From: Chloroflexota bacterium
GTDB lineage: Bacteria; Chloroflexota; Limnocylindria; Limnocylindrales; CSP1-4
Length of the DNA: 64,000 nucleotides
Direction: 5' to 3'
NCBI GenBank assembly: GCA_003152165.1
Contig: PLZO01000022.1
Location: 2,362-66,361 of the forward strand
Positions 10,209 to 42,795 of the stretch are shown here, one piece after another. A model generated the notes under the pieces. The model was not told the origin of the DNA. It saw only the letters and a program-made list of their open reading frames with translations, and searched no databases. Every line of letters starts with the position of its first letter. Positions within the stretch are counted from its first letter, which is position 1. Made by a program: the position numbers and the translations under genes.

Positions 10209-10217
10209 TCTCCACTG

Positions 10218-10601: not shown

Positions 10602-10603
10602 TC

Positions 10604-10837
10604 GTGGCTGCGCCATCGGACTGGATCACCCTGGCCGCGGCGGCCGAGATCCTGGCTGCCGCCAACATCCGGTTTCGGCCCGAGACGATCGGTCGCTGGG
10701 CGCGCACGGGACGGCTTCAGAGCATCAAGCTTGGCGGGCGCCGCTTCGTGCGGCGGGGACAGGTCCGAGCGTTGGTGGCGGCGCCTCGCCACGTCCGTGC
10801 CGGAGACCTCCAGCCGGGGCTCTTCGAGGAGCTCTAG
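10604..10837 (+). CDS. Small HTH DNA-binding protein (excisionase/MerR-like HTH_17 type)
   Basis: 77 aa; ITLAAAAEILAAANIRFRPETIGRWARTGRLQSIKLGGRRFV matches the excisionase-family DNA-binding domain. Confidence 0.6.
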   Translation: MAAPSDWITLAAAAEILAAANIRFRPETIGRWARTGRLQSIKLGGRRFVRRGQVRALVAAPRHVRAGDLQPGLFEEL

Positions 10838-10898
10838 GATCAGCCTCCTCTAGCCCGAGGCCCCCGAGGGGCCCGAGCCGCCCGAACGATTTCGCGGG

Positions 10899-27799: not shown

Positions 27800-29040
27800 G
27801 CGCCGGCCCCGCCGGTCGCTGCTGCCACAGCCGCTGGGCGGATACCCATCATCTCGAGGGCGGCCGACTGGGCCGCCGCGACCCCGACACCGGGCTGGAC
27901 CCGGCGCTCGAAGCGGATCGACACCTCCTCGAGCACGCCGATCGCATCGAGGATCTCACCGAGGGTGACCGAACCCAGGTGGCCGAGCCGGAAGATCTGG
28001 CCGGCCAGCAGACCCTGGCCACCGGCCAGGATGACGCCTTCACCTTTCACTGCGCCGTTGATCGCTTTCCAGTCGAAGCCAGCCGGCACCCGGACGGCGG
28101 TCACCGTGCGTGAATAGTGGGCCGGATCCGCGAACAACTCGAAGCCGAGCGCCTCGATGCCCGCCCGAGCCGCCGCGGCGCAGGTCTCATGGCGGGCGAA
28201 GATCGCCTCGGCGCCCTCGCTCTCCATCAACTGCAGGCCGGCGTCCACCTGGTAGACGACCGCGATCGCCGGCGTCCAGGGCGTCTCGCCCAGGGCGTGG
28301 GCATCGCGATGCTTGCGCAGGTCGAGGTAGAACCGGGGCATCCGGGCGGTTTCCATCGCTGCCCACGCCCGCTCCGACGCGGCGACCATGGCCAGACCGG
28401 GAGCGGCCATCCACGCCTTCTGGGAGCCCGTCACGACCACGTCCACGCCCCAGGCGTCCATCTGGAAGGGCACAGCGCCAAGGCCCGAGACACTGTCGAC
28501 GATGATCAGGGCGTCGGGCTGGACCGCGCGGATTGCGGCGGCCAGCTCGGCGATCGGGTTCATCACCGCGGTCGACGTTTCGTTGTGGGTGAGCAGAACG
28601 GCCCGATAGCCCGGGTTAGCCTCCAGATGGGCGCGCACCTCGGAGGGGTCGGCGGCCCGGCCCCATTCGATCGACAACTTCGTCACGTCCGCCCCATAGA
28701 CGCCGGCGATCTTGGCGATCCGATCGCCGAACGCGCCAATCGACACCGCCAGGACCCGATCGCCCGGCGAGAGCGTGTTGACGACGGCTGCCTCGAGCCC
28801 GCCCGAACCCGCACACGACAGGATGGCCACGTCGCTGGTCGTCCCGAAGTAGGGCTTCATCCGGGTCAGGATCCGACCCAGCATCGCCGCGAATTCGGGG
28901 CTCCGGTGGTTGATCATCTGGCGGCCGCCCGCTTCCCGGACGCTGGGCGGCAGGGCGGTTGGTCCGGGGATCCGGAGGTTGGGCTCGAAGCGGTTCACGA
29001 ATCGGCTCCTGTGCTGATGCGGATCCCCGGACCGTGCCAT
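27796..29040 (-). CDS. Class-V aminotransferase (phosphoserine aminotransferase SerC-type or Ser/Ala-glyoxylate aminotransferase)
   Basis: IPGPT…MINHRSPEF N-terminus; PLP-lysine region. It lies adjacent to serA, which argues for a SerC role. Confidence 0.75.
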   Translation of the reverse strand: MARSGDPHQHRSRFVNRFEPNLRIPGPTALPPSVREAGGRQMINHRSPEFAAMLGRILTRMKPYFGTTSDVAILSCAGSGGLEAAVVNTLSPGDRVLAVSIGAFGDRIAKIAGVYGADVTKLSIEWGRAADPSEVRAHLEANPGYRAVLLTHNETSTAVMNPIAELAAAIRAVQPDALIIVDSVSGLGAVPFQMDAWGVDVVVTGSQKAWMAAPGLAMVAASERAWAAMETARMPRFYLDLRKHRDAHALGETPWTPAIAVVYQVDAGLQLMESEGAEAIFARHETCAAAARAGIEALGFELFADPAHYSRTVTAVRVPAGFDWKAINGAVKGEGVILAGGQGLLAGQIFRLGHLGSVTLGEILDAIGVLEEVSIRFERRVQPGVGVAAAQSAALEMMGIRPAAVAAATGGAGA

Positions 29041-29112: not shown

Positions 29113-29619
29113 TTAGCCGGAGGGTCCGGCCTGGGGATCGTCCGGATCTCCGCCCCCGACCCCGCCGCCGGCATCGCGCTTCTCGGTGTCCGCCAGCTTG
29201 CGCCGGTTCGTCTCGCGAGTTCTCAGGATCGAGCCGGCTGCCTTCATCGAGTCAACCGTGGGCGGGGGGTTGGCCGCCCGGCGCTGGCGGCCCAGCTCCC
29301 GAGCGGCCTGCCGGGCCGCGGCCCGGGCGGCCGTGCGTGCCCCGATCGTCGCCTCGTAGCCCTGCTCGCTCGGCTGGTAGTAGCGCCGTTCGGCCAGCGC
29401 TTCGGGCAGGTACAGCTGCGCGATGTCGGAGTCCTCGAAGTCGGGCGGATAGCGATAGCCAACGCCATAGCCATAGTGCTTCATGGCCGGATGCCCCGCG
29501 CTGCGCAGGTGGAGCGGGACCGGCAGCGCCCCACTCGCGTCAAGGTCCGCGACGGCCGCCCAGTAGGCGGTCCCGGATCGGTTCGACTTCGGGGCGGTGG
29601 CCAGGTAGGTCGTAGCTTG
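29113..29619 (-). pseudogene. Displaced 3' remnant of rarA (C-terminal ~170 codons, no 5' part)
   Basis: Translation (…TAPKSNRSGTAYWAAVADL…LPVPLHLRSAGHPAMKHYGYGVGYRYPPDFE…QGYEATI…) is about 60% identical to the C-terminus of the intact RarA at 41287-42795. Codon usage matches the host (GC3-rich). Homology stops at about 29620; the upstream 26 codons are unrelated. Confidence 0.7.
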
Positions 29620-29698
29620 CGCCCATGGACATCGTTCGTCGCGTCGATTATCGTGATCCTGGCGACCCCATTCGACCCCGAACTCGAAGGACCTCACG

Positions 29699-31018
29699 AT
29701 GACAACGATACGGCCCGCTGCCTATGTCAGGAAGAGCCATCGCGACGCCGTCTCGGCGACGGCTCAACTAGCGTCCATCCAGGAGCTTGCCATCCGGCAG
29801 GGTGTCACCGCACCGCTGGCGGTCTATGCCGATGTTGGGGTGTCCGGGCGTGCCGGGAAGAGGGGTGTCAAGTCAGAGTGGGGTCGCCTGCGCGATGACA
29901 TCACCGCGGGCTCCATCACCGTCGTCTACGTGACCGCCCTCGACCGTGCCGGTCGCTCACTCCTCGAATGGCTTCAGTTCGTCGAGCTCTGCGTCGCCAA
30001 GGGGGTCGAGGTCCGTGACCAGTCGGGCGTCGATCGAACGTCGGGTGACGCCGAGGACATCGCCACCATCGAGATGATGATGGCGCAACGTGAGGGGCGC
30101 AAAGCCGTCGAACGATCCGCCCGTGGTCGAGCCACGCAGGCCCGCAGGGGGGATGACGTCTACCAGGGCCACCCACCGTACGGGTGGATGCGCGTCAAGG
30201 ACGCCAACGGGCGCATCACGCAGATCGCCAACCCCGCCGAGCCGCTCCAACCCCTCCTAGAGGCCATCAGAGCCACCAAGGGGAACGTCTTGGCCGCGGC
30301 GCGGTTCCTATCCACCTCGGGAGTTCCGACGCGCTCCGGGCGGCCTTGGGACGCTCGGGTGTTGACCCGCGCTCTCGACCGCCAGGGAGTGATCCGGGCA
30401 CGACGCGAGGGCGCACGCCGACGTCGCGGTCCGTCCGACGCGCCGTTGTCGCGGATCGTCGTGTGCCACTGCGGCGCAACGATGACGCCCGAGCGCGATC
30501 GTCGCAACGGCCAATGGCTCGGCCTCGTGTGCTCGGTCGGGCGCAAGGCGGGTCAAGCGTCGCACGGGCGGTACATCGCACGATCGCGGCACGTCATGGA
30601 GTTGCTCAAAGCGTCAATGCGGGTCACCACCCACCACATCGAGCGATCGTCGCCGACCGACACCGCCGCGCAGCGGACCGACCTCGAGGCGAAGCGTCGC
30701 CGACTCGGCATGGCGTTGGCCGATGACGCGATCGGCGAGGACGACTACCGCGTCCGAATGGAGGCCGTCAAACGCGACCTCGCCGAGCTCGATGAGAGCG
30801 TCGCGGGCGAGGGTGAGTGGATCGGATGGACTCACGGTCCGTTGGTCGACTGGACGGTCGATGACGTCGCGCTCGGCGATCGCCTCCGGTCGCTAGTACG
30901 ATCCGTCACGCTCGACACGGACATGATGCCCGTCGCGGCCGACTACCGCGTCCCGTGGTTGCCCGCTGGCGTGTCGCGCTCGCGCCGCTCTACCGAAGAG
31001 AAGCCTTCCCACGCGTGA
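29699..31018 (+). CDS. Large serine recombinase (serine integrase)
   Basis: N-terminal resolvase-type catalytic domain (AAYVRKSHRD…TAQ…, catalytic Ser context), recombinase domain, zinc ribbon (CHCG…C), C-terminal coiled coil. 439 aa. Confidence 0.85.
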   Translation: MTTIRPAAYVRKSHRDAVSATAQLASIQELAIRQGVTAPLAVYADVGVSGRAGKRGVKSEWGRLRDDITAGSITVVYVTALDRAGRSLLEWLQFVELCVAKGVEVRDQSGVDRTSGDAEDIATIEMMMAQREGRKAVERSARGRATQARRGDDVYQGHPPYGWMRVKDANGRITQIANPAEPLQPLLEAIRATKGNVLAAARFLSTSGVPTRSGRPWDARVLTRALDRQGVIRARREGARRRRGPSDAPLSRIVVCHCGATMTPERDRRNGQWLGLVCSVGRKAGQASHGRYIARSRHVMELLKASMRVTTHHIERSSPTDTAAQRTDLEAKRRRLGMALADDAIGEDDYRVRMEAVKRDLAELDESVAGEGEWIGWTHGPLVDWTVDDVALGDRLRSLVRSVTLDTDMMPVAADYRVPWLPAGVSRSRRSTEEKPSHA

Positions 31019-31486
31019 GTGGGTCGGCCGCTCGCCACGCTTCGCCTCGCAATGGGCTCTGCTCTTCACGCGCGCGTTGCTCTGCGGTAGCGATGCAGTG
31101 GGCGTGTGTCGCAACCTGACGCTGCTCGAACTCGATCGCGCGTGCGGCGAACTCCGCATCCGTCTCCGCGGCGCGCGCGGGGATGACCTTGTCGTCTTCC
31201 CGCCGCTCAGCGCGTGCGGGCCACGGTTCAACGGGACCCCACATCGAGCACCACGAGCAATCGTGCCAGTCGGGAGGAACGTCCATGTCGGGAGTCTCGC
31301 ACCTGCCTCGCGCACGCCTCTACGACCTGAAAGTACCGCCGACGAGCCTTCGACCGAGCACGACGTAGAGAAGCGTCGAAACGCTCCCGGAGAGGGCATA
31401 GCGAGGCTCCACGCACGAATCTCGGGTCGAGAATCTGGCACTTTCACGAGAACGGGTGGAAACACGTCTTTGGGCCGTTCTACGAT

Positions 31487-31527
31487 CTAGCTGCGCCTAG
31501 CGCCTCGCTTAGAGTGGCTCTGGTAGA
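31487..31527. repeat. Cluster of phased TAG-containing repeats (CTAGC, CTAGC, TTAGAG, GTAGAG; 10-13 bp spacing) containing the 12-mer TAGAGTGGCTCT
   Basis: The 12-mer recurs at 37450-37461 inside a second cluster (cgcTAGAGtggctctTAGCGcgctccTAGCGtcc, 37447-37479). CTAG is otherwise rare in this high-GC DNA. Both clusters lie inside the island. Confidence 0.45.
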
Positions 31528-31678
31528 GGCGTCCTCCGCGTCACGCTCCCGTGCCAGGAGCGCCCAACATGGCGGGCAAAGGCCGAACCCACTCGCGGCG
31601 CTTCCGGCCATCCAGCGCGCATCGTGATGCGTCCATGGGCGGAGGCACCGCTCGCACGGCGGCGGGCCCGCGTCGCGC

Positions 31679-32128
31679 TCAGCCGACTCCAGCACCGATC
31701 AGACCGCGCGATCGAACGACTTCCACCACGTCCATGCCGTCGTCGGGTGCTGCGGGCGACGCATCGACCGAGCGGAGCACGCCGTCCTCGTCGATCGGAG
31801 GTGACTCCTTCGCCACCCGCGTCGCCTCGCTGTTCCCGCCGGTGAACGTCGACTCGACCGTGACCGGGCGACGCTCTTTGGGTTCGGCGATCGCGTGGAG
31901 CCGGTGCGACGCGAACGCGGTCGACATGGCCTCGTCGGTCCTGCCGCCGATGACCGTTCCGCATGAGCACACAGCGCGACGTTTCGCGCCGTAGCGGACC
32001 TCCGCCACGACATGGCCGACGGCCATCCGCGAGCGGTTGCCTCCGAGCCGCTGGCCTGAATTCCATGAGGAGTGGCCCCTCACCGCGGCACCATGGCCGC
32101 GACGCACGCCGCGAGGATGAAGAGCCAT
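31679..32128 (-). CDS. Hypothetical protein (last gene of the minus-strand coupled operon); start uncertain (ATG 32128 or ATG 32026)
   Basis: ORF follows the upstream gene stop (32151) after 22 nt. No recognisable domain; contains CSCG. Confidence 0.3.
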   Translation of the reverse strand: MALHPRGVRRGHGAAVRGHSSWNSGQRLGGNRSRMAVGHVVAEVRYGAKRRAVCSCGTVIGGRTDEAMSTAFASHRLHAIAEPKERRPVTVESTFTGGNSEATRVAKESPPIDEDGVLRSVDASPAAPDDGMDVVEVVRSRGLIGAGVG

Positions 32129-32150
32129 ACCACGAAGAAGACGATCGTTC

Positions 32151-32330
32151 TCACCGCGTGGTGTCCGCGACGTTCGCCCTGATGCCGTCCTCGACGGCGG
32201 TCTGGACACGGGCGAGGCGGAGTGCTTCGCGACGCAGCGTGACGGCGTCGATCGCCTCCCGCCGCTGTCGCTCACGCTCCCGCTGCGTCGCGGACTTCGC
32301 GTGCGGAACGGCGGTGGCCATGTGGCCCAT
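32151..32330 (-). CDS. Small hypothetical protein (59 aa, Arg/Glu-rich helical)
   Basis: ATG at 32330 overlaps the upstream stop as ATGA (translational coupling). Sequence MGHMATAVPHAKSATQRERERQRREAIDAV…. Confidence 0.4.
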   Translation of the reverse strand: MGHMATAVPHAKSATQRERERQRREAIDAVTLRREALRLARVQTAVEDGIRANVADTTR

Positions 32331-33175
32331 CACCGGACCGTCCCGTCGGGCCGCGTCGCGGTGATCGTGGACCCGGTGGAGCCACGCTCTGACGACTTGG
32401 CCATCCCGGCGGGTTCGACATACTCCTCGCCGACCGCCCACGCCCCCATGGCCGCGGACATCTTCGCCGCGATCGACGTCTCGGCGCGTACCTTGAGCGA
32501 CGCGGTCACGACCTCGGGTCGGCCCGCAGCGAGGGCGGCATCTTCGATCAACTTGAGGACCTGCGTCTGCGACGCGAGGATCGCGCGCTCGTGTTCGATG
32601 GCCGCGGCTTGAGCGCGCGCCTCAGCCTGGACGAACACGCGACGCGCGGGATCAGCCAGATCGTAGTCCATATCGATGCTCTTGACGATGCTTCCCGCCG
32701 TTGCGTCGCCGAGTTGGCTTGCCGCCTGCGCGAGTACCCGTGCCTGCGAGAGCGCGCCGAGGCCGTAGAGGTTGATCGCCCGCTCGGAGAGCGACGCAAC
32801 GCGGTCCTTGTCCACCGTGCCGTTGGCCGTCTTCGCGTCGCGCACGAGCTGCGCGACTTCCGCCCGATCGGACGCGCGACGCGCCTCCTCGGCGGGTGAC
32901 TGGACGCGATCGCGTTCGGTCGCGAGGCCCTTCCGTGCCTCACGGACGATGTAGCCCGTCAAGCGCGACGTGCGCTCACGCGCCACGGCGGCGGCCGTGT
33001 CGAACGTGCCACGCGCGGTGGCCAAGTCGGCATCGAGCGTCTTCGGGTCGATGAGCACGCCCTGTGTCGCGCGCTCGGTGATGCGGATCGCTTGTGAGTT
33101 GATCTTGAGCACGTCCGCGTTGAACGCATCGGCGACGTCTTTCAACGTGTAGGTGGGTACTTCAGTCGGTGGCAT
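32330..33175 (-). CDS. Hypothetical alpha-helical protein (281 aa)
   Basis: ATG at 33175 preceded by gaaggagg at -5. Non-repetitive helical sequence; possible phage structural, scaffold-like or regulatory protein; no motif recognised. Confidence 0.55.
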   Translation of the reverse strand: MPPTEVPTYTLKDVADAFNADVLKINSQAIRITERATQGVLIDPKTLDADLATARGTFDTAAAVARERTSRLTGYIVREARKGLATERDRVQSPAEEARRASDRAEVAQLVRDAKTANGTVDKDRVASLSERAINLYGLGALSQARVLAQAASQLGDATAGSIVKSIDMDYDLADPARRVFVQAEARAQAAAIEHERAILASQTQVLKLIEDAALAAGRPEVVTASLKVRAETSIAAKMSAAMGAWAVGEEYVEPAGMAKSSERGSTGSTITATRPDGTVR

Positions 33176-33329
33176 GTGGGCCTCCTTCGAGGTTGGTGAT
33201 GATCCGATCGAGTACGTCCCGATCGCGCGTGGTGTCGAGCGCCCAAGCCGCCGCCAGGAGACGGATGAGGATCCGCTCCAGCGGTGTGAAGCTCGGTTCG
33301 GTTACTGATGTGCGACGCTTGCTCTTCAT
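33162..33329 (-). CDS. Small hypothetical protein (55 aa)
   Basis: ATG at 33329 overlaps the upstream stop as ATGA, with an aggagg RBS 5 nt upstream. Its stop overlaps the start region of the next gene. Confidence 0.45.
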   Translation of the reverse strand: MKSKRRTSVTEPSFTPLERILIRLLAAAWALDTTRDRDVLDRIITNLEGGPHATD

Positions 33330-33997
33330 GTGTCCTCCTGTGTCCTTAGGTGCTCCTTCACGTCAGGCGACGCGTTGGCCATGCCCGTAGCGTGGTGTTC
33401 CGTGTGCCGCCGGACCTCCGCCCGCGACGCCTCGATCGCCGCGGTCGGCTCCACGTAGTCGACCCACGGCATGAGCGGTAGGCCCAACGTCGCCCGGAGT
33501 GCGTTGGCCGCGTCGAAGCGGGCCCGTGGGTACGGGAGCAGCGCCGTGAAGAGCTGCGCTTCGAGGCCGCTCTCGACGAAGGCCTCCACGGCGATCGCGC
33601 CGGTGTCGCGCGTGTCCGCCGGCGGGGTGCCGATCCGTGCGAGGTCAGATGCCGCTCGTCTCCGCTCGGCGAGGATGCCCAAGCGCACGCCGGGACCGAC
33701 CGAGTCGAGGGGGATGTCCAGTCCGGCGATCACGCTCCGGAGGAGTTCCTCGGCGGTCAGCGGTAGTTCCTTCGCCTGCGTGGCTTCTGTTCGCCTGGGT
33801 GGCTCTTGCGGGCTACCGGTGACCACCGGAACGACATGCCCATTGCGCTTGTGCCGTGCGATCGCGTCCCGGTGGCAGCCGATCATCCGTGCGATCACGA
33901 CAGCGGGTCGACCGGCCAGGATCATGGAGTCGGCCATGGCCCGCTGCGGATTGCTGCAGACGGTACAGCGGCTCCCGATCACGGGTCCCTTGCTCAT
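33326..33997 (-). CDS. Zinc-ribbon + HTH DNA-binding protein (first gene of operon)
   Basis: I place the start at the ATG at 33997 (RBS ggaga at -7). N-terminus CTVCSNPQRAMADSMILAGRPAVVIARMIGCHRDAIARHKRNGH is a CxxC zinc ribbon plus an HTH, resembling phage small terminase/regulator N-termini. Confidence 0.55.
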   Translation of the reverse strand: MSKGPVIGSRCTVCSNPQRAMADSMILAGRPAVVIARMIGCHRDAIARHKRNGHVVPVVTGSPQEPPRRTEATQAKELPLTAEELLRSVIAGLDIPLDSVGPGVRLGILAERRRAASDLARIGTPPADTRDTGAIAVEAFVESGLEAQLFTALLPYPRARFDAANALRATLGLPLMPWVDYVEPTAAIEASRAEVRRHTEHHATGMANASPDVKEHLRTQEDT

Positions 33998-34088
33998 GGT
34001 CGTGTCTCCGGTCGCGCAGACACGACAGCGGTTGCGGTCCGTGCGCGGTGAACTCCCGGCGTGGTAACTTGCGACCCGGAGGTCGCGA

Positions 34089-34122
34089 GTTCTTCGCGAC
34101 GTGACGTGGACACGCGAAGAAC
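34089..34122. promoter_or_regulatory. Inverted repeat gttcttcgcg-N14-cgcgaagaac upstream of the 33997 operon; candidate operator
   Basis: 10-bp perfect inverted repeat flanking acgtgacgtggaca, about 90-125 bp upstream of the operon start. Embedded TCGCGA hexamers. Confidence 0.35.
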
Positions 34123-34139
34123 GCATCTGCGTACAAGCG

Positions 34140-34840
34140 GGTGAGAAGCCGCCTTCACAAACTGCTCCCCGGAAACGACGCCCGCGGGATACACCCCGGG
34201 GGTTGATACACGCCCCCTAGACGGTTGAGAGCACGTGTAAGAGGCACCGGCGGGGGCCGAGCGGCCGTTGCGTACGTCCGTCACGATGTCGCCCCTCTCA
34301 GTGGCAGTGCAGAGCGTGAATATGTATTTATCACAGCGGGGCATGCGACTCGTGGATATGTATTCACGAACGTACCCAACCGACGGCTATGTGTGTGCAC
34401 ACGTACGTCCACGAGGGATCGACTTCCGACAACGGCACCCGCCACCAACCAACGCTTGTAATGCAACCGCGAGGAATACTCGGAGGAACTGCCCCCGCAT
34501 ATCCACACACCCGCGCATGCAAGCGGCGCACCAAAGCGCCTCGAATACCTCGGTCGGCCGTCCACAACACCCGCGGCCCTCTGCACAACGGCCCCGTCCG
34601 TGCACCGAGCCGACACAAGAGCGGCACTCACACGACTCACCGATGCTTCGTGGGTGTATCCGCGGCCCCGAACCACATCGGCCGTCTGAGGGTGACCGGC
34701 ACGAGAGCGAGCAATATACTCAGTGCCGTTCTTTACATGCCCCGCTAATCGACACACGCCGTTGTACTCAAGCGGCCGCTTCCCGTATACGATAGCAACG
34801 TCATTCCGGAGCACTCCGGAGAACGAACCCGAAGGAGATG
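34140..34840. other. About 700-bp non-coding, comparatively AT-rich region with multiple short direct repeats (iteron-like)
   Basis: No credible ORF in any frame. Repeats: GATACAC(G)CCCC x2 (34188-34216); ATATGTATT(TAT)CAC x2 (34319-34366); CGTACGTCC x2 (34270, 34401); ACACCCGCG x2 (34507, 34567). Runs of CA/ACAC. Confidence 0.5.
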
Positions 34841-34841
34841 C

Positions 34842-35054
34842 ATGTTCCCATACACCATCGACTCGAGCCCCACCAAAGCAACCCCGAAGCGAACCGCTCC
34901 GAAGCGGATCTGGGTCCACTCCACACACGCCGTCATGGCCGCCGCGCGACGTTGGGATATGGAGCACATCCCGGCGATCCGAGCCGCCGAGGAAGCTCAC
35001 CCGAGTGTCGGCTTCGAGCGCGACGAATACGGGCCTCTCATCCTCAACTGGTAG
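34842..35054 (+). CDS. Small hypothetical protein (70 aa)
   Basis: ATG preceded by gaaggaga at -5. Sequence MFPYTIDSSPTKATPKRTAPKRIWVH…; no known motif. Confidence 0.5.
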   Translation: MFPYTIDSSPTKATPKRTAPKRIWVHSTHAVMAAARRWDMEHIPAIRAAEEAHPSVGFERDEYGPLILNW

Positions 35055-35164
35055 CCGACCACGATCGTCGTTGGCAGTGGTCAGTGCTAATGGCAGTGGT
35101 GACCACTTCCCGCCGTTGAGACCGGCATTCCATCCGCGCCTCCACGAACACTGACCACTACCAC

Positions 35165-35210
35165 CCCCCCTATTTATATAGGGGATAGGGGTGGTAGTGG
35201 TAGTGGTGAG
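35165..35210. terminator. Strong hairpin (13-bp perfect stem ccactaccacccc / ggggtggtagtgg, AT-rich loop ccctatttatataggggata) between convergent genes; putative bidirectional terminator
   Basis: Perfect 13-bp inverted repeat with a 20-nt loop, located between the 3' ends of 34842..35054(+) and 35231..35902(-). No U-tract, as is common in high-GC genomes. Confidence 0.45.
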
Positions 35211-35230
35211 GCGTGGTGCCCACAAGTGAC

Positions 35231-35902
35231 TCATACGTCCTCGGGGTCGGCGTCGGGATCGACACGGAAGTACAATCGCTTCTTCGCTCCGCCGACACTT
35301 GTCGCGACGTAGACGACTCGTAGTTTCCCGTCTTCAACGAGTTCCGCGACGCGCTTCCGGACCGTCTCGCGAGACCGCCCACTGACCTCAACGAGCGACG
35401 CCATGTCGAGCCCCTCACCGTCGGTCGGGATCGCGTCGAGGAAGCTCTCCCACTCGTCTTCCGAAGCGACGTTCAACGCCTTCGTGGCAGCGGCCTCGGC
35501 GCGGAAGACGTTGTAGAGGCACGTGTAGACGGCTTCGGTGTACTTGAACCCGCTTTGAGTGAACCGCTCACCGTCGCGTACAACGCACTTGGAGTCATCC
35601 CCGTACGTGTCCGACGGTAAGCCGACACGAGCGAGCTCTTTGGCCGCCCACACGTCGCGAGCGGTACGCGCTTCCTGGTAGGACGGGAACGTGCCGTCCT
35701 GTTTCGACCAACGGTTCTTCCCGTGGATGAGCGGGTCGAATACGTCGCGGAAGTCGTACGCGCTCGTGGCCTTCGGGCGGTCGGGATCATCGAGCGCCGT
35801 GCGAATATCCACGGGAAGCTCTTCGCGACGCAACGGGCGTGGTGGTTGAGGCCGTTGGGCGTAGTGCGTGTCGGTGCGTGCGTTCCAGTCGATGGGGCTC
35901 AC
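35231..35902 (-). CDS. Hypothetical protein with a C-terminal winged-helix-like segment (223 aa)
   Basis: GTG start overlaps the stop of the upstream XRE gene (GTGA). C-terminus …LVEVSGRSRETVRKRVAELVEDGKLRVVYV… is wHTH-like; the N-terminal 150 aa are unassigned. Confidence 0.5.
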   Translation of the reverse strand: MSPIDWNARTDTHYAQRPQPPRPLRREELPVDIRTALDDPDRPKATSAYDFRDVFDPLIHGKNRWSKQDGTFPSYQEARTARDVWAAKELARVGLPSDTYGDDSKCVVRDGERFTQSGFKYTEAVYTCLYNVFRAEAAATKALNVASEDEWESFLDAIPTDGEGLDMASLVEVSGRSRETVRKRVAELVEDGKLRVVYVATSVGGAKKRLYFRVDPDADPEDV

Positions 35903-36330
35903 GACGTCACGCTCTCGGCGACGCGGTCGGCGAGGAACGCGTCTACCTCCGCCACCGAATGGAGGCGATTGTCGTCGTAGGGCGGGTCAAGGAAGATGTC
36001 CCAAGACGCTCCTTCGACAGTACTCTGGCCACCGCCATCAACGCCGATGCCAGCGACGCGGAGTCGGTCTTCTTGGGAGTGTCGCTCCACGAGCGACGCA
36101 TCGACACCGGTCACGCTCTCGGCGATCGCCATCAGCCGCGACGCGCGGCCAGGTTCATTCCGTGGTGACCCGTGTCGTTCGACGATGGCCACGAGTGATT
36201 GTGAGAGTCCACCCAATTGCGCGAGCTCACTTTGGTTCAGTCCCGCCCGTAAGCGGGCCCGACGTAGTGCGACACCTTCGGTTGGGCGTGGTGCGCGTTC
36301 GGTGACGTAGCGTGGTCCTATTCGTGTCAT
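35899..36330 (-). CDS. XRE-family HTH protein with an uncharacterised C-terminal domain (repressor-like)
   Basis: ATG at 36330 with aaggaagg RBS. HTH LRRARLRAGLNQSELAQLGGLSQSLVAIVERHG; C-terminal region contains DIFLDPPYDDN. Divergent from the 36818 gene across a 470-bp region. Confidence 0.6.
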   Translation of the reverse strand: MTRIGPRYVTERAPRPTEGVALRRARLRAGLNQSELAQLGGLSQSLVAIVERHGSPRNEPGRASRLMAIAESVTGVDASLVERHSQEDRLRVAGIGVDGGGQSTVEGASWDIFLDPPYDDNRLHSVAEVDAFLADRVAESVTS

Positions 36331-36493
36331 TCGGTACCTTCCTTTCACTCATTCGTGCGAGTTGGTGGCGTGTAGAGAAGTCGATCGTTCAGTAGTATTC
36401 CCGAATGACAAGGCGGGTTCACGGTGACCCGACGATCACCCATTGGTAGCGGGGTGTTCTCGGGAGTCCAACCCGGTCTTCCGCCATTCTTCC

Positions 36494-36717
36494 GAACGTT
36501 CACGTTCGACTGCTTGGGTGATACGACTATTGTAACGCATGCTCGCCGGCTATGCGCACCTATAACCCACCGGGTGACGTCGCCAGACCACTCAGTGACG
36601 TTGCCCATATGAAGTCGATCGGATACGCGGTGATGTCATCAGCGCGCCTCTCCGTCGTTTCCTAGACGGTGTCGCCTGAATGCGCCATTGAAGTCGGCGA
36701 AGTTGCGTTTCACGTTC
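36494..36717. promoter_or_regulatory. Divergent promoter/operator region with repeated TTCACGTTC motifs
   Basis: gaACGTTCACGTTCgac at 36494-36510 (overlapping palindrome GAACGTTC) and a second TTCACGTTC at 36709-36717; a TTCACGG at about 36416. Lies between the XRE gene and the 36818 gene. Confidence 0.4.
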
Positions 36718-36817
36718 AAGTTGGCTATGGACAATCTGCGCGATCAGCGCGAAGGTTGACGTTGTCGTCGATCGACGATCACCAACGAACGACCGCGAGG
36801 TCGAAAGGGACTTTTCA

Positions 36818-37312
36818 ATGACACGGATCGCAACCGCCAAGGACGCCGCCGCCGCCATCAAGGTCATTCGGGCCCCGAAGGCCGCGAAGGTCGCGCCGAT
36901 CGTCGACACCGCCGCGAAGATCGTCGGCCAGTGCGTTGCATCGCCAACGCGAGCCCCACACATCAAGGTTCGTTGCACGAACCCGATCGGCACCATCAAT
37001 CACGTCCTTTGCGACGAACACGCCGAACTTCTCAAGGCCAACGCGAAGGCCGCCAAGGCGTCCGCGCCAAAGAGCGCGAAGGCGAAGCCCGTCAAGCCGA
37101 AGTCGGCGGGAACGTCAAAGGCTTCCACGAAGGCACCGAAGATCGTCACCGCTCCCGAACTCCCGACGCACGCCGCGAAGGTCGCCCGCACGTCGATCAT
37201 GCAACCCGCGCTCGCTCGCATCCCGCGACCGAGCACGTGGACGCCAACCGTCGAGCAACCCGCCACGTACGTCAACCTCGTGACGCCAGGCGGACCCGAA
37301 CCGACCGAATAG
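36818..37312 (+). CDS. Basic Ala/Lys-rich protein with a Cys/His cluster and a histone-H1/HU-tail-like repeat region
   Basis: RBS gaaaggga. Contains C-x11-C-x10-C-x2-H (CVASPTRAPHIKVRCTNPIGTINHVLCDEH), then KANAKAAKASAPKSAKAKPVKPKSAGTSKASTKAPK. Confidence 0.5.
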   Translation: MTRIATAKDAAAAIKVIRAPKAAKVAPIVDTAAKIVGQCVASPTRAPHIKVRCTNPIGTINHVLCDEHAELLKANAKAAKASAPKSAKAKPVKPKSAGTSKASTKAPKIVTAPELPTHAAKVARTSIMQPALARIPRPSTWTPTVEQPATYVNLVTPGGPEPTE

Positions 37313-37733
37313 TCGTCGATCGACGATCGACCCCCACGAGGCCCGACCAACATCGGGCCTCGTTCCATGTCCGGCGCCGCCACCCGTCCACTCAGAGGCG
37401 ATGCCCAAGCGAAGTCGCGAAACTACCCGACTTCACCGGCTCCGTTCGCTAGAGTGGCTCTTAGCGCGCTCCTAGCGTCCAGGCGCGCGACTCCGAGCAA
37501 ACGCCGCCACCACGGGACTGTACTCACGAAGGAACTCCTCTCCGCAGGCCCGATCTCGGCGTCGTCCGACCAGCGCACTCTGGGGCGTCGCGGTCCCTAT
37601 GTACACGGCGCGCCCGCGCGCGTATCGTGGCCTTGCGCGTTTGCGCAAGGACGCAACCATGGAGGACCACAGTGGATCGCCGCCACCTGGCCCGTGACAG
37701 GCGGGCCGTCACGACGCCCGGCATACTCAGACC

Positions 37734-38768
37734 ATGACCGACGAGCGACCACCTGTTGAGCCAGTCCTACAGACCGAACTCGGGGCGCTCTACGCGGGAG
37801 ACTGCGTCCCGCTCATGCGGGCGCTGCCTGCGGGATCGGTCGACCTTTTCTTCGCCGATCCACCCTTCAACCTCGGCAAGGACTACGGGGTCGCCGCGCC
37901 GGACAACCACACCGAAGACCGCTATCTGAAGTGGTGCTTCGAGTGGCTGTCCGAAGGAGTCCGGCTGCTCAAACCGGGCGGGTCGATGTTCGTCTACAAC
38001 CTCCCGAAGTGGTCGATCCCCATTGGCGAGTTCCTACGGACTCGGTTGACCTTCCGGCACTGGATCACGGTCGAGATCAAGTTCGGGCTTCCGATCACGG
38101 GTCGCCTCTACCCGAGCCACTACGGCTTGCTCTACTTCGTGAAGGGGAAGCGGCCGAACCGCTTCGACCCGCCGCGCCTCGCGATGCCGACCTGCCGGCA
38201 CTGCGGCGGCGAGATCCCGGACTACGGCGGCTACAAGGACAAGATGAACCCGAAGGGGCTCAACCTCTCCGACGTGTGGAGCGACATCGCGCCGGTCCGC
38301 CACTCGCGGTTCAAGAATCGGGAAGCGAACGAACTGTCGCTCAAGCTGATGGATCGAGTCCTCGACATCGGCTCGGCGCCTGGCGACATCGTCCTGGACC
38401 CCTTCGGCGGAGCCGGGACCACCTACGTCGCGGCCGAACTCAAGCACCGCCGCTGGATCGGGATGGAGTTGAGCACCGCTGACGCTATCGTGGATCGGTT
38501 CGCCGACCTCAGCCAGGATCGGGCGAACCTTCGCCGATACCGGTCGGGGATCAACACCCTGTTCACGCCCGAGGCGTTGGCCCTGCGCGCCCGGTCGGGC
38601 ATGGGCAGGAACAACCACCGGTACAACATCGAAGGGGCCGCGCCCGACGCTCGACTCAACGGAGAGGTCCACCAACTCTCGCTCGACACCACCGAGACAG
38701 TCGAGTCGATCGAGGGTGGGCTAACGAAGAGCCCGGCCGTCGGTTCCCTTCCGGATGAGCGGCACTAA
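37734..38768 (+). CDS. DNA methyltransferase, beta-class (N4-cytosine or N6-adenine), Type II R-M
   Basis: Motif IV DLFFADPPFN precedes motif I DPFGGAGTT (circularly permuted beta order). Contains a Cys cluster CRHCGGE. Confidence 0.8.
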   Translation: MTDERPPVEPVLQTELGALYAGDCVPLMRALPAGSVDLFFADPPFNLGKDYGVAAPDNHTEDRYLKWCFEWLSEGVRLLKPGGSMFVYNLPKWSIPIGEFLRTRLTFRHWITVEIKFGLPITGRLYPSHYGLLYFVKGKRPNRFDPPRLAMPTCRHCGGEIPDYGGYKDKMNPKGLNLSDVWSDIAPVRHSRFKNREANELSLKLMDRVLDIGSAPGDIVLDPFGGAGTTYVAAELKHRRWIGMELSTADAIVDRFADLSQDRANLRRYRSGINTLFTPEALALRARSGMGRNNHRYNIEGAAPDARLNGEVHQLSLDTTETVESIEGGLTKSPAVGSLPDERH

Positions 38769-39446
38769 CGGATCGGTCGCGTCGTAGCTGACGACAATCA
38801 CGGCCAAGCGGCCAGGAACGTCGACTCGACCGTAGACCTCGCGGTACAGCGATAGCTCGCGCCAGTTGCCGGTCCGGTCGGTGAGGTAGCGGTAGAGATC
38901 GCCATCGGGGAGGCACAAGACGGCCTGCTGCGCGAGACCACGCATCAAGGCGACGGTCAGTCGGTTGAGTGACCGATGCGAGCTGCTGATATTGCCGGTC
39001 TCCCACTCGACCAACGTGGACCAGGCGCTCGCCAGCGCCTTGCCCGCGTCGAAGCCGCCTCGACGGCCAAAGAGCGGGATCTCCATCGTCCAGCCACGCG
39101 CCTTCAGGTCGAGGGCGAATGCTTGCTTGATCGGCACGACACCGTTGCCTTGTCGCTTCGGGTTGATCGTGAACTTGCCCGATCCGGGCGGCCAGTGGAT
39201 CGTCGGGATGACCAACCTGATCTGGGCGAGGTCGGCGTCGGCAACCGCGATCTCACCGGGGTCAGTGAGTCGATCGAACAGGACGACCTCTTCCGCGATC
39301 AGCACGGACCGAGAGTACAACGCGTCACCCCCAATGGGCCAAACGCGGCGCTCGTCCACGAGACCGTCATGGCGACTGACCCAACAAGTGGTCTGGCTCG
39401 CCTCGCATAGCGGAGAGGATGCCAATTCGGACACCCCCACGTGCAA
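38721..39446 (-). CDS. Putative Type II restriction endonuclease (convergent partner of the MTase)
   Basis: 241 aa, convergent with the MTase and overlapping its 3' end by about 48 nt. Possible PD…(D/E)xK elements (TDPGE … ALDLKA). No family-level match recognisable by eye. Confidence 0.4.
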   Translation of the reverse strand: MHVGVSELASSPLCEASQTTCWVSRHDGLVDERRVWPIGGDALYSRSVLIAEEVVLFDRLTDPGEIAVADADLAQIRLVIPTIHWPPGSGKFTINPKRQGNGVVPIKQAFALDLKARGWTMEIPLFGRRGGFDAGKALASAWSTLVEWETGNISSSHRSLNRLTVALMRGLAQQAVLCLPDGDLYRYLTDRTGNWRELSLYREVYGRVDVPGRLAVIVVSYDATDPLVPLIRKGTDGRALR

Positions 39447-39781
39447 GTGGGCGCCTAATGCCGTGGGAATAAGCGTGCGGAGCTATTTGTCGTAATAGCC
39501 CGATGTCTATTGAGCAACGCACCGGTCGCGTAATCGAGCCGAATCTTGCCACGATCGCGCACAAACATAGGCTTCCATATGTAACGCGGCGCCACGGATG
39601 CCGCATATCCACCTGGCTGGTATGTCGAATGGTGACGGACTCGTTGGCTGGGGGAGATCCGGATACGCGAGCCAGGACGATTGCCGTAACGATGTCATGG
39701 AGACGGACTTGACAGGCCGGGCATTCCGTGCAAACTCAACATCGTCAACTTCGGCAGTCAACGATGGAGGACGGATTAGCG

Positions 39782-40375
39782 ATGAACCCCGACGACGTGA
39801 CCCATATTCTCGCAGGCGCGGTCAAGGCAGTGACCGACGCCAAGGTGCCGCCGGACCTGGCACCGGTTGCCTTCGAAAAGGCGATCGACATGCTCGCCGG
39901 CCCGCGGCCGGTGGCAGCTTCGACAACGGCGACATTGGGGGTGCCAACCTCGGTCGCCGCGCCGACCACGCCCACCGGGTCAGCGATCGACCGCTTGGCG
40001 ACCCGCCTTCATCTTTCGCACGAGGTTGTCGAAGCCGTCTTTACGGAGAACGGAGATGAGCTCGCGATCAGCGTGCCGCCCGATCGGTTGGCGAAGGCCA
40101 AGAGTGCAGGCGCCCGTGAGATCGCCCTGCTCGTCGCGGCCGCGCGCCAGAGCAGCTCGGATGATCCGACAACGACCGACCAGATCAGGCGGGCTGTCGA
40201 GGATTACAACCGATTTGACGGGCCGAATTTCGCCTCGTCTCTTTCGCCGATGAAGGGAACATTCCTCGTCGCCGGTCCCTCGCGCTCGCGAACCTTCAAG
40301 TTGACGAAGCCTGGATGGACGGCTGCCGCCTCGCTGGTCGGCCGGTTGGGCGCCCCTGACAAGTCAGCATCGTGA
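39782..40375 (+). CDS. Hypothetical protein (198 aa), first gene of a 2-gene cassette
   Basis: ATG with ggagga RBS. Helical N-terminus, Ala/Thr/Pro-rich linker, C-terminal domain. Its stop overlaps the next start (ATGA). Confidence 0.5.
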   Translation: MNPDDVTHILAGAVKAVTDAKVPPDLAPVAFEKAIDMLAGPRPVAASTTATLGVPTSVAAPTTPTGSAIDRLATRLHLSHEVVEAVFTENGDELAISVPPDRLAKAKSAGAREIALLVAAARQSSSDDPTTTDQIRRAVEDYNRFDGPNFASSLSPMKGTFLVAGPSRSRTFKLTKPGWTAAASLVGRLGAPDKSAS

Positions 40376-41193
40376 CCACGGGGCGAGCCCGAACGGCCTC
40401 TCACTCGCCGGTCCCAGCTGCGAGCACCGGGGGTCCGGCCGCGGTGCTCGGCGGCCTGCCCCTCGGCATCAGGCAGGAGCTCATCGACGAGTTGAACAAG
40501 ATCGAGCGCCATTTCCGCGAGGGCCGCTGGGAACCTGCGGAACTCGACGGCGGGCGACTGTGCGAGATCGTCTACTCGATCGTCCGCGGCGAACTGGACG
40601 GCAAGATCCCGTCCAAGGCGTCCAAGCCGACCGACCTTGTTGGGGCGATCCGGGCCCTCGAGGGCGTGCCAGCATCGACCGGACCGCGATCGTTCCGGAT
40701 CACGATCCCGCGCGCCCTTCTCGGGATCGTGGACGTCCGGAACGATCGTGACGTTGGCCATATCGGCGGCGAGGTCTCCTCTAACCACATGGATGCCTCC
40801 TATGTCCTTGCCGGTGCCAAGTGGCTGGTCGCCGAGCTTGTCCGCTACTACCACCAGGTCGACACCGCGACCGCCACCACGTTTGTTGAAGCGTTGATCG
40901 AACGGGACACCCCAGCTGTTTGGCAGGTCGCGGGCACGAAGCGACTACTCCTGCATGGCGTCTCGATGCCTGATCGGACCCTCGTGGCCCTCGATTCGAC
41001 CGCCGGACCGGTCCATACCACGGACCTCCGGGAGTGGACGGGCTACTCCAACGCGACGCTGTTCCGGCAGAGCATCCTGGTCGAGCTGCATCGCGCCGAT
41101 CTCATTCACTACGACCGCAAGACTGGCCTTGTGTATATCTCGCCGCTCGGTGCCAAACGTGTCGCCGACCACCTACACCAGTGGGTCGCCTAG
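40372..41193 (+). CDS. Hypothetical protein with a possible HEPN-like R-x6-H motif and a C-terminal winged-helix-like region (273 aa)
   Basis: …ITIPRALLGIVDVRNDRDVGHIGGEVSSNHMDASYVLAGAKWLVAELVRYYH… then …ELHRADLIHYDRKTGLVYISPLGAKRV. Translationally coupled to the upstream gene. Located in the island beside the R-M system. Confidence 0.5.
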   Translation: MTTGRARTASHSPVPAASTGGPAAVLGGLPLGIRQELIDELNKIERHFREGRWEPAELDGGRLCEIVYSIVRGELDGKIPSKASKPTDLVGAIRALEGVPASTGPRSFRITIPRALLGIVDVRNDRDVGHIGGEVSSNHMDASYVLAGAKWLVAELVRYYHQVDTATATTFVEALIERDTPAVWQVAGTKRLLLHGVSMPDRTLVALDSTAGPVHTTDLREWTGYSNATLFRQSILVELHRADLIHYDRKTGLVYISPLGAKRVADHLHQWVA

Positions 41194-41286
41194 ATCTTGG
41201 TCAATACGATCAATTAGGCGTCGATCCCAGGTGACAACGCTGTGGTACTCGGCGCGTTCCTTGCCGCCGGCTCCACGATCCCTCCC

Positions 41287-42795
41287 TCAAGTTCCAGCGT
41301 CGCGCTTCTGCGTCTCCGCGAGCTTCTTGCGGCTCTCGTTGTGGGCGTTCAGCCCGTCGCTCATCGACCCCATCGGGTCGAGGCCCGGCCGATCCTGCTT
41401 CCGACGCTGGCGACCAGCTTCCCGAACAGCTTGCCGAGCACCATCTAATACAGCCATCCGCGCGCGGACCGTCGCTTCGTAGCCCTGGTCGCCCGGCACG
41501 TAGTACCGCTGCTCCACGAGGGCATCGGGAAGGTACTGCTGCGAGATGTCGTCGCCCTCGAACTCGTGGGGGTTGCGGTAGCCGACACCGTCGCCGTATT
41601 GCTTCATGGCCGGATGACCCGCCGTCCGGAGATGCGCCGGGACCGGCAGCGATCCGTACTTCAACACGTCAGCCATCGCCGCGGCATAGGCGCGACCTAC
41701 CGCGTCCGACTTGGGCGACGACGAAATATGGACGGTCGCCTGGGCGAGGGCGTACTGGGCCTCGGGCAGGCCCACGTGGTCAAGGGCCTGGGCCGCGGCC
41801 ACCGCCACCTGGAGCGCCCGGGGATCGGCGTTGCCGACGTCCTCGGAGGCGCTGATGATCAGCCGCCGGACGATGAACCGGGGATCCTCGCCCGCCGCGA
41901 TCATCGTGGCCAGCCAGTACAGCGCGCCATCGGGATCGTTGCCCCGCAGGCTCTTGATGAAAGCGGAGGCCGTGTCGTAATGGCCGTCGCCGGCCCGGTC
42001 GTAGGCAAGGACCCGTTGCTGGGCGGCGGCCTCGACTTCGGCCAGTCGGGGCGCGACCCGACCCTCCAAATCGCGCACGCCGGCCGATTCGGCCAGGGCG
42101 GTGGCGCCTTCAAGCACATTGAGCGCCTGGCGGGCGTCCCCGCCGGCCAGTCCGACGAGGTGGGCGAAAGCGTCGTCCGGCAGGCTCACCCCACCACTAG
42201 GGCCGAGCGCGCCGGCCAGTCCCCGGTCGGGATCATCGATCGCACGGCGGACCACGGTTCGTACGTCACCGTCGGACAGCGGCTCCAGGCGCCAGACCCG
42301 CAGACGCGACAGGAGCGCGCTGTTCAACTCGAAATAGGGGTTCTCGGTCGTGGCCCCGATCAGGATGATCGTGCCGTCCTCGACGTGGGGCAGTAAGCCG
42401 TCCTGCTGGGATTTGTTGAAGCGGTGGATCTCGTCGATGAACAGAACGCTGCGCGCTCCGTTGAGGCTCAGCCGCTCACGCGCCGTCGCCACCGTCGAAC
42501 GGATCTCGGCGACGCCGCTCATCACCGCCGACAGGCTCATGAAGTCAGCCCCGATCGCGTCGGCGAGGAGCCGGGCCAGGCTGGTCTTGCCCGTCCCCGG
42601 CGGGCCCCACAGCAGGATCGACCCGAGGTAGCCGCGTTCGACCGAGCGGCGCAGAGGACCCTCCTCCCCGACGAGTTGAGCCTGGCCCACGTACTCGGCC
42701 AGCGTTCGCGGGCGCATCCGGGCGGCCAGGGGCTGGACGCCCGGCGGGGGCTGAAAGAGGGCGGCCTGGTCTGGAGCGGGACGGCGCGTCGGCAC
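41287..42795 (-). CDS. rarA: Replication-associated recombination protein A (AAA+ ATPase RarA/MgsA); chimeric, with the 3' ~450 nt supplied by the integrated element
   Basis: Walker A GPPGTGKTS, Walker B LFIDEIHRF, MgsA C-terminal domain (…LRTAGHPAMKQYGDGVGYRNPHEF…). Codon usage shifts to AT-ending codons downstream of …LAQAT (about 41735). Confidence 0.85.
   Translation of the reverse strand: MPTRRPAPDQAALFQPPPGVQPLAARMRPRTLAEYVGQAQLVGEEGPLRRSVERGYLGSILLWGPPGTGKTSLARLLADAIGADFMSLSAVMSGVAEIRSTVATARERLSLNGARSVLFIDEIHRFNKSQQDGLLPHVEDGTIILIGATTENPYFELNSALLSRLRVWRLEPLSDGDVRTVVRRAIDDPDRGLAGALGPSGGVSLPDDAFAHLVGLAGGDARQALNVLEGATALAESAGVRDLEGRVAPRLAEVEAAAQQRVLAYDRAGDGHYDTASAFIKSLRGNDPDGALYWLATMIAAGEDPRFIVRRLIISASEDVGNADPRALQVAVAAAQALDHVGLPEAQYALAQATVHISSSPKSDAVGRAYAAAMADVLKYGSLPVPAHLRTAGHPAMKQYGDGVGYRNPHEFEGDDISQQYLPDALVEQRYYVPGDQGYEATVRARMAVLDGARQAVREAGRQRRKQDRPGLDPMGSMSDGLNAHNESRKKLAETQKRDAGT

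Follow-up and report, generated by a model that had tools for sequence, protein, structure and literature searches.

In this work we analysed a stretch of 64,000 nucleotides of Chloroflexota DNA (the window), in which the gene rarA occurs with two different 3'-ends lying 12 kb apart. The results indicate with high confidence that a 12.1-kb island was integrated into rarA by its own serine integrase and that the 3'-end of the gene was replaced by a fragment carried on the attachment site of the element (attP). A preliminary description of this DNA had proposed a serine-integrase element that targets an internal rarA site and brings its own 3'-end, and this proposal was supported by an empty site, an exactly mapped crossover, the predicted fold of the enzyme and the existence of related elements. 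The features of the window involved in the integration are the following:

29113-29619, minus strand: displaced host rarA 3'-end, 168 codons plus stop, beginning at a CAA Gln codon and without the 5' part
29588-29649, minus strand: integrase-proximal junction (P arm-CA-B' arm), with the core at 29619-29618, the P arm at 29649-29620 and the B' arm at 29617-29588
29620-41740: integrative island, 12,121 bp between the two core copies (repeat unit of 12,123 bp when one core is counted)
29699-31018, plus strand: compact large serine recombinase (integrase) of 439 aa, from PF00239, phrog_95 and the predicted fold
41287-41742, minus strand: element-borne replacement rarA 3'-end, 151 codons plus stop, fused in frame at the core
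41711-41772, minus strand: rarA-proximal junction (B arm-CA-P' arm), with the core at 41742-41741
41743-42795, minus strand: host 5' part of rarA, 351 codons from the GTG at 42795
27796-29040, minus strand: host serC-like class-V aminotransferase (PF00266), directly downstream of rarA in the empty-site contigs

The open reading frame (ORF) at 41287-42795 (minus strand) encodes a full-length RarA/MgsA protein of 502 aa with the AAA, AAA_assoc_2 and MgsA_C domains, the last one matched at 8.3e-60 over positions 1-164 of the 167 of the profile. In the ORF at 29113-29697 (minus strand) MgsA_C is represented by its second half alone (Pfam 2.7e-26, profile positions 63-164 of 167); the rarA homology of this ORF stops at 29619 and the extension of the reading frame to 29697 is due to chance. 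When aligned with the intact RarA, the displaced copy was 54% identical to its C-terminus over 164 aa (E=7e-53), and a scan of the DNA for direct repeats detected a pair of 199 nt, 77% identical, with a spacing of 12,123 bp. The diverged C-terminal copy that had been described 12 kb from the intact rarA is therefore present at both the protein and the DNA levels; its size, given before as about 170 codons, is exactly 168 codons, and the replacement has 151. The core bases 41742-41741 are common to the host part and the element-borne part of the gene.

The base composition agreed with two origins for these sequences, in part less markedly than the preliminary description had suggested. The window as a whole is rich in guanine plus cytosine (GC), about 69-70%, and the drop reported between the two copies is real but modest, since the island has 65.2% GC versus 68.6% and 69.6% in its flanks. 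The GC content at third codon positions (GC3) was 0.78 in the element-borne part of rarA (last 456 nt) and 0.86 in the host 5' part (first 1,053 nt), so that the preference for A/T-ending codons described for the last ~450 nt of the intact gene does exist, with a weaker contrast than described. The displaced copy is GC3-rich like the host (0.85), as had been stated. Within the island the sub-region from 34.2 to 37.0 kb is even lower in GC (57-63%), with GC3 values of 0.57-0.65 in the ORFs 34281-35234, 35899-36348, 36345-36608 and 36592-36999, suggesting that window positions 34200-37000 were inserted into the island more recently or from a foreign source, or else that non-coding DNA has been miscalled as ORFs there.

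An uninterrupted rarA arrangement, whose search in relatives had been proposed earlier, was found in two metagenome contigs, L007 (ERZ1756581) and L008 (ERZ27262750). Both encode a RarA protein (P0028) that was retrieved by a search with the intact RarA, and in both of them rarA is followed by the serC-like aminotransferase and PGDH genes, in the same order as in the window flanks, and the island is absent. The C-terminus of P0028 was 98.8% identical to the displaced rarA end and 56% identical to the C-terminus now present in the gene. In blastn comparisons L007 was 97.3% identical over window positions 46959-41467 and 98.9% over 29619-25547, and L008 was 95.4% and 99.4% identical over the same two flanks, the identity of the empty-site contigs to the window thus being 95.4-99.4% on both sides. 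When the host RarA was rebuilt from the host 5' part and the displaced 3' part, it coincided with P0028 at 490 of 493 residues, the start assigned by the gene caller to the empty allele corresponding to codon 27 of the host rarA counted from the GTG at 42795. The DNA of the occupied rarA was 98-100% identical to L007 up to the core and 53-80% identical after it, and the displaced fragment agreed with L007 starting at the core, apart from scattered mismatches. A second sample (L002, ERZ27254121) contained the same island with the same junction, differing by one mismatch in 4,769 bp, which argues that the structure is not an assembly artefact.

The crossover was mapped by a base-by-base three-way comparison of the two junctions and the empty site in the rarA-sense orientation. 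The attachment site of the host (attB) reads ...CAGTACGCCCTCGCC-CA-AGCTACGACCTACCTGG..., the rarA-proximal junction ...CAGTACGCCCTCGCC-CA-GGCGACCGTCCATATTTCG... and the integrase-proximal junction ...CGATGTCCATGGGCG-CA-AGCTACGACCTACCTGG.... The rarA-proximal junction is identical to attB through ...GCCCTCGCC-CA and shows its first mismatch at +1, and the integrase-proximal junction mismatches attB at -1 and is identical to it from CA on; because of these mismatches at -1 and +1, the exchange is limited to the dinucleotide CA, which corresponds to bases 1-2 of the Gln352 codon (window 41742-41741 and 29619-29618). The junctions, which had been placed near 29610-29640 and 41730-41750, are in this way resolved to 29618-29619 and 41741-41742, and the short shared core dinucleotide with imperfect inverted flanks that was anticipated turned out to be a 2-bp core, CA only, with partly dyad-symmetric arms. 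The rebuilt attB 42-mer had an exact match in L007 and L008, and both junctions were unmutated with respect to attB within 30 bp. A crossover in the hexamer GTCCAT, found near both junctions, was also considered and rejected, since the rebuilt rarA would then lose its reading frame and the alignment with the empty site is incompatible with such a crossover. No tRNA, tmRNA or Rfam RNA gene was found at or near the junctions.

The preliminary description had placed a large serine recombinase gene at 29699 as the first gene of the element, and this was borne out by domain matches and by the predicted structure of the protein. A resolvase-type catalytic domain was detected at residues 7-152 (PF00239, 1.4e-19), and the PHROGs match was phrog_95 'integrase' (3e-42). 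In an end-to-end alignment of 22 homologues, the catalytic R11 and S13 (YxRKS) and C256, C258 and C278 were invariant and H289 was near-invariant, the last four residues forming a zinc-type motif (CxC...C...H). An AlphaFold2 model built on this alignment (mean predicted local distance difference test score, pLDDT, of 84) was compared with the PDB using Foldseek; it matched a serine integrase in complex with its recombination directionality factor on an attachment site of the integrated form, attL (9dxf, 5.5e-14), Bxb1 (9iu2, 7.8e-14), PhiC31 (9rah, 9e-12) and the complex of the C-terminal domain of LI integrase with DNA (4kis, 7.7e-6). The model aligned over about 500 columns with full-length integrases (E 5e-14 to 1e-11), and small resolvases aligned with only its first ~140 residues. 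Two long helices were found at residues 322-369. The predicted fold thus indicates that the protein has the C-terminal DNA-binding region of large serine integrases.

This integrase is far from the characterised ones. Its best NCBIfam match was XisF, with the catalytic domain only and far below the cut-off, the CcrA/CcrB matches being also far below their cut-offs; the closest integrases of cultured phages (Streptomyces phiHau3 and relatives) were about 27% identical, and no close match was found in IMG/VR. An exhaustive search of 1.84 billion cluster representatives gave 41 clusters at E<=1e-30 and 252 at E<=1e-10, mostly of 400-450 aa and aligned over their full length. Four integrase loci were found in a collection of species-representative genomes, all of them in Chloroflexota metagenome-assembled genomes (MAGs), and the RarA matches carried the host group Candidatus Limnocylindrales/Limnocylindria. 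No second recombinase was found in the island with Pfam, PHROGs, PADLOC or NCBIfam.

Sites of serine integrases are characterised by a 2-bp non-palindromic core, by short partner sites unlike each other and by partial dyad symmetry. The sites described here match these features, with a 2-bp CA crossover, unlike attP and attB sequences and imperfect dyad symmetry. The predicted attP is AATCGACGCGACGAACGATGTCCATGGGCG-CA-GGCGACCGTCCATATTTCGTCGTCGCCCAA. Its reconstructed arms agree at 14 of 30 positions, a value reached by 263 of 20,000 shuffles, and CGACGAA is found at -22 to -16 on both arms; the attB arms agree at 16 of 30 positions (reached by 12 of 20,000 shuffles). The P arms of five family members (the window, L003, L004, L005 and L015) align without gaps from the core outward, with the consensus G[AC][CG][GT][AT]AC-N3-GT[CA]CA-N3-[GT]CG followed by the core, and the P' arm of the window, GGCGACYGTCCATATTTCGTCRTCGCCCAAG, was also found in L020. 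A 5-bp shift of the outer motif between attP and attB, seen by eye and resembling a zinc-ribbon-domain signature, received no clear support in a systematic comparison of the arms and is not claimed.

Two other observations concern these sites. L015 contains a complete palindromic site, GAGCGCGCGTAACTT-N26-AAGTTACGCGCGGTC, ~60 bp upstream of the integrase gene (L015:1727-1782); its 15-nt arms are 93% complementary and lie 26 nt apart, its central dinucleotide is TG rather than CA and no rarA is nearby. This is what would be expected of an unrecombined attP, and the element may be unintegrated or have another target. At window positions 29626-29654 (plus strand) there is a -35-like TGGACA, the reverse complement of the P-arm GTCCA, followed after 17-18 nt by TAnnnT. 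This arrangement is conserved upstream of the five integrase genes of the window, L003, L004, L005 and L015 (TATCGT, TACGGT, TAGCGT, TAGGAT and TACGAT), each of them preceded by a GGA-rich ribosome-binding site, so that the integrase promoter may overlap the predicted binding site of the integrase itself. The number of promoters obtained in the scan was not above chance (2 found, 1.6 expected).

In the mechanism that we propose, the circular form of the island would recombine with the chromosome by means of the large serine recombinase that it encodes. The enzyme would pair attP (~50-60 bp), which in the rarA-sense orientation would read ...CGCGACGAACGATGTCCATGGGCG-CA-GGCGACCGTCCATATTTCGTCGTCGCCC..., with attB inside rarA, in a conserved stretch encoding PEAQYALAQATTYLATAPK, and both sites would be cut at the central CA, their half-sites exchanged and religated. 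On its P' side attP opens a rarA 3' fragment that has 151 codons and lacks a promoter, and for this reason integration fuses the fragment in frame to the 351 codons of the host, giving a full-length RarA that would be expressed from the host promoter. The native last 168 codons are left 12 kb away, beside the integrase gene.

At the level of the sequence the target gene is restored: the recombinant rarA is full length, the fusion between host and element is in frame and the conserved domain is kept. The chimera scored 201.9 bits with MgsA_C versus 207.5 bits for the native allele, over the same span (profile 1-164). With 120 close RarA homologues as reference, 58 columns showed a conservation of at least 90%; of these, 56 are kept by the element-borne part and 51 by the displaced native part. 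The conservation of these columns and of the MgsA_C score suggests that purifying selection has acted on the fragment and that the function of the gene is restored, and, judging from its sequence, the chimeric RarA probably works.

The same architecture was found in relatives. The homologues of the integrase in L004 (62% identical), L005 (58%) and L012 (42%) have a rarA fragment ~80 bp upstream of the integrase gene (int) on the opposite strand. In the three of them the rarA homology starts at query residue 347-350, at the same CAG/CAA Gln codon, and the host part opens with CAG GCN..., encoding QA(T/A)(T/A)Y(I/V)A..APKSN. L005 is a complete 4.4-kb element, made up of the displaced fragment, int, four small ORFs and rarA at its far side. 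Beyond int and the rarA fragment (rarA') the elements share almost nothing, just one small motif-containing ORF and one ORF of 281 aa, suggesting that int-attP-rarA' is the conserved unit and that the cargo is free to vary.

Outside rarA, the integrase of L003 adjoins, at a CA core, the last ~155 codons of an ORF without an identified family (L003:9456-9935, minus strand; ...HGDNYWAASGYPNVDSAIL...), so that this element may use the same gene-repair strategy at another target; the element (L003:11324-21332) contains genes for a large terminase, endonuclease VII, AAA_25 and Prim-Pol. Other contigs contained rarA sequences of the element type in a decayed form. In L020 (ERZ25039478 contig_15297, 316 kb), from a host ~75% identical to the window in nucleotide sequence, the region 6962-12431 has an intact native-type rarA (6962-8485) and, 1.5 kb downstream, a 5'-truncated copy which is identical to the first one for 50 nt up to the core and which, after CA, continues with a P' arm (GGCGACTGTCCATATTTCGTCATCGCCCAAG) and a C-terminus that are both of the element type. 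Two more short remnants of C-terminal tails lie nearby. This locus resembles the rearranged remains of one or several old rarA integrations, with an order of copies unlike that of a simple integration. L016 and L017 have, at positions 9909-10383 of each one, a 475-bp copy that is 94.7% identical to window 41698-41227, the element-borne rarA 3'-end; this copy has a frameshift and is cut off 44 bp inside the core, and the island around it is an unrelated one, which contains a tyrosine integrase, Shedu (SduA_C), GmrSD, an EcoRI-type methylase and a further N6_N4 methylase. Apparently the repair fragment is carried along, or decays, in mobile DNA of other kinds. L017 and L002 come from one sample.

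Two further groups of sequences were set aside. P0027, encoded on L009, was considered as a second chimera because its C-terminus is nearer to the element type, but the P' arm motif is missing from it and the contig is too short for a decision. The short proteins consisting of MgsA_C only were considered as a census of displaced fragments; in the long-read assemblies L021 (ERZ25039547) and L022 (ERZ25039550) the genes are fragmented, several neighbouring genes are split too and the short ORFs look like frameshift artefacts. Many of the short MgsA_C-only proteins in the databases come from such long-read assemblies and cannot be counted as displaced rarA fragments.

The remaining genes of the island to which some identity could be given are:

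37734-38768, plus strand: N4/N6 DNA methyltransferase (PF01555 2e-35; phrog_67 2e-38)
38721-39446, minus strand: BamHI-family restriction endonuclease (PF02923 5.9e-35), convergent with the methylase gene, with a 48-bp overlap
35899-36348, minus strand: helix-turn-helix (HTH, XRE-type) regulator of 149 aa (HTH_31/HTH_3 ~8e-4, below the Pfam cut-off; weak PADLOC matches to capH and a control protein)
31679-32026, minus strand: small ORF of 115 aa with a Cys/His motif of ~40 aa shared with ORFs of L003 and L015 (tblastn 4e-8 and 2e-7)

The adjacent endonuclease and methyltransferase are predicted to be a type II restriction-modification pair carried as cargo. The Cys/His motif, H(L/V)VA(E/D)V.(Y/F)G.(K/D)R.V.C..C…GG.(S/T)D.AM..(A/N)F..H, is found in the ORFs at window 31679-32026, L003:13819-14169 and L015:3945-4220, all on the minus strand, and no Pfam family was found for them; speculatively, the product of the window ORF is a candidate accessory or directionality factor. 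The ORF of 281 aa at 32330-33175 is 33% identical to an ORF of the L003 element. The rest of the cargo consists of about a dozen ORFs without recognised function: none of the other ORFs of the island gave a family in Pfam, PHROGs, PADLOC or NCBIfam, and four of them, compared also with the PDB sequences, gave nothing credible.

Several points weigh against an active element that integrates into rarA and repairs it. In the island we recognised neither a recombination directionality factor nor genes for replication or transfer; in particular, there was no Pfam, NCBIfam or PHROG match to a relaxase, a coupling protein, type IV secretion or oriT, a divergent relaxase being possible among the ORFs of unknown function. 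Neither a circular form nor excision was observed directly, and we infer both that the island is still able to excise, which would need a directionality factor, and the mode of its movement between cells. All the sequences compared are metagenome assemblies. The Recombinase (PF07508) and zinc-ribbon (PF13408) domains were not detected in the integrase with Pfam at E<0.01, and for this reason the assignment of its C-terminal half depends on the predicted fold. In L005 (GCA_032128175.1, JAQBHC010000034.1, positions 5150-5160) there is an extra base directly after the core (CA-A-GGCC...), which leaves the element-borne C-terminus frameshifted and represents either a real failed repair or an indel error of the MAG. 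Finally, the related integrases of L003 (49% identical), L015 (50%), L006 (46%) and L013 (35%) are not located beside rarA; the specificity for this gene is therefore not family-wide, and the target has shifted within the family.

The island could have been inserted as described and be now an immobile fossil without excision function, a possibility that we regard as real but less likely than not. It would fit with the lack of a recognised directionality factor, relaxase, replication or packaging gene and with the decayed relics of the same kind found elsewhere, namely the partial attL-type copy in L020 and the 475-bp pseudogene fragment in L016 and L017. However, the integrase ORF is intact and has all the invariant residues, the junctions have stayed free of mutations, and near-identical copies of the island occur in separate samples while closely related strains hold the empty site. 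Less likely is a phage satellite or a degraded prophage, mobilised by hijacking a helper phage. Relatives with integrases of the same family do carry phage-type modules (those already mentioned for L003, and AAA_25 in L006), and the 281-aa ORF links the island to the L003 element, but the searches of its 12 kb with Pfam and PHROGs revealed no genes for capsid, terminase, portal, tail or lysis. More generally, neither virion structural nor packaging or lysis genes were detected among 20 ORFs with Pfam and PHROGs, 12 kb is too small for a prophage, and the distance to IMG/VR entries and to phage integrases speaks likewise against this origin.

It is also conceivable, though we consider it quite doubtful, that rarA' acts as a functional module swap, by which every element of the clade would replace the C-terminal third of RarA (the MgsA_C/tetramerisation end and a variable tail) with a foreign version. 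If so, the swapped module could alter the behaviour of RarA at stalled forks or in recombination and favour maintenance of the island, and the relics of L020 and L016/L017 would record repeated swaps, rarA being a long-term landing pad in Limnocylindria.

A regulated gene-integrity switch of the skin/sigK, SPbeta/spsM or A118/comK type, in which rarA would be turned off by integration and restored by excision, is very improbable. The enzyme does belong to the same family and its best NCBIfam match, XisF, points in that direction, but rarA is not inactivated, since a full-length in-frame RarA is encoded whose MgsA_C domain scores like the native one. A domain-score ratio of 1.1 has been used as the criterion for a target 'disrupted without restoration' (PMC7192596), and the ratio between the native and the chimeric proteins was 1.03, below that value. 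A segmental duplication of the rarA 3'-end in the host, with divergence and accumulation of unrelated DNA between the copies, has nothing in its favour but the existence of two copies and was refuted by the near identity of the displaced copy (and not of the in-gene copy) to the native allele, by the empty-site contigs, by the clean 2-bp crossover break and by the recurrence of the same architecture with diverged integrases in other hosts.

The integration of the rarA island by its own serine integrase, with repair of the gene, belongs to a known kind of phenomenon, because restoration of the target by a gene fragment carried on attP has been described as a typical strategy of integrative elements (Mageeney et al. 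2020, PMC7192596); the rarity attributed in the preliminary description to a protein-coding target with replacement of its 3'-end was thus overstated. As in other target-restoring elements, the target is a conserved coding sequence, the element carries its 3' portion, the recombinant gene is full length, the displaced native fragment marks the far end and int adjoins the attachment site. Phage 21 and e14, integrated in icd of E. coli, are the classical cases of attP-borne fragments. They differ in having tyrosine integrases and a longer identical core, while the rarA island has a serine integrase and 2 bp of obligatory identity; moreover, the replacement in rarA is a long one, of 151 codons or 30% of the protein, and shares just 54% identity with the part that it replaces. 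The name rarA was not found, under the names searched, in the supplementary target lists of PMC7192596, nor is it mentioned among the targets of large serine recombinases in Durrant et al. (PMC10083194), and apart from a clostridial cassette nothing was found in the literature on rarA as an attachment site of serine integrases or prophages.

That cassette, of 24 kb and coding for the type E neurotoxin of Clostridium botulinum and C. butyricum, splits rarA (PMC4824171, PMC2764570). It carries a complete second rarA of 414 aa, 69-70% identical, and other strains have intact chromosomal rarA alleles (PMC4824171, PMC2764570); the hexamer TTCATC is found at its ends, no dedicated recombinase was identified and it also occurs in a plasmid helicase gene (PMC4824171). 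Both insertions have the same target and bring rarA sequence of another lineage so that a functional copy remains, as predicted for the case presented here. In contrast, the rarA island carries only a 3' fragment of 151 codons fused in frame, and its ends share CA and not TTCATC.

Among serine recombinases, the enzyme resembles the integrases of Bxb1 (groEL1), PhiC31, A118/LI (comK), SPbeta SprA (spsM) and SpoIVCA (sigK) in fold and domain order in the predicted structure, and resembles characterised serine integrases in its short and unlike attP and attB, their partial dyad symmetry and the 2-bp non-palindromic crossover. It differs from them in its identity of at most ~27% to any phage integrase, its compact size of 439 aa and the lack of Pfam Recombinase and zinc-ribbon matches. 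The insertions of Bxb1 in groEL1, A118 in comK, SPbeta in spsM and skin in sigK truncate or inactivate their targets (partly from the introduction of PMC7192596), whereas the rarA island would repair its own. As for the Ccr serine recombinases, SCCmec inserts at the extreme 3'-end of rlmH (orfX) and affects few codons. The rarA island is like SCCmec in being a serine-recombinase island located in a housekeeping coding sequence without inactivating it, and is unlike it in that 151 codons are replaced.

What is new is a divergent and compact clade of serine integrases restricted to Chloroflexota, its rarA target, an unusually long and diverged repair fragment and a crossover known to the base. 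The enzyme, attP, attB, attL, the opposite junction attR and the crossover were all obtained from sequence alone, in the poorly known Chloroflexota class Limnocylindria. Compact serine integrases with known site pairs are wanted for genome engineering, and this integrase of 439 aa, smaller than those of Bxb1 (about 500 aa) and PhiC31 (about 605 aa) and member of a small clade, is a candidate tool; the main value of the finding is a ready-made pair of integrase and sites, together with an example from an uncultured lineage. For the biology of these bacteria, rarA is added to the conserved genes that serve as landing sites, and, because a serine integrase needs only 2 bp of identity, the repair fragment would be kept by selection for the fitness of the host and not by the chemistry of recombination.

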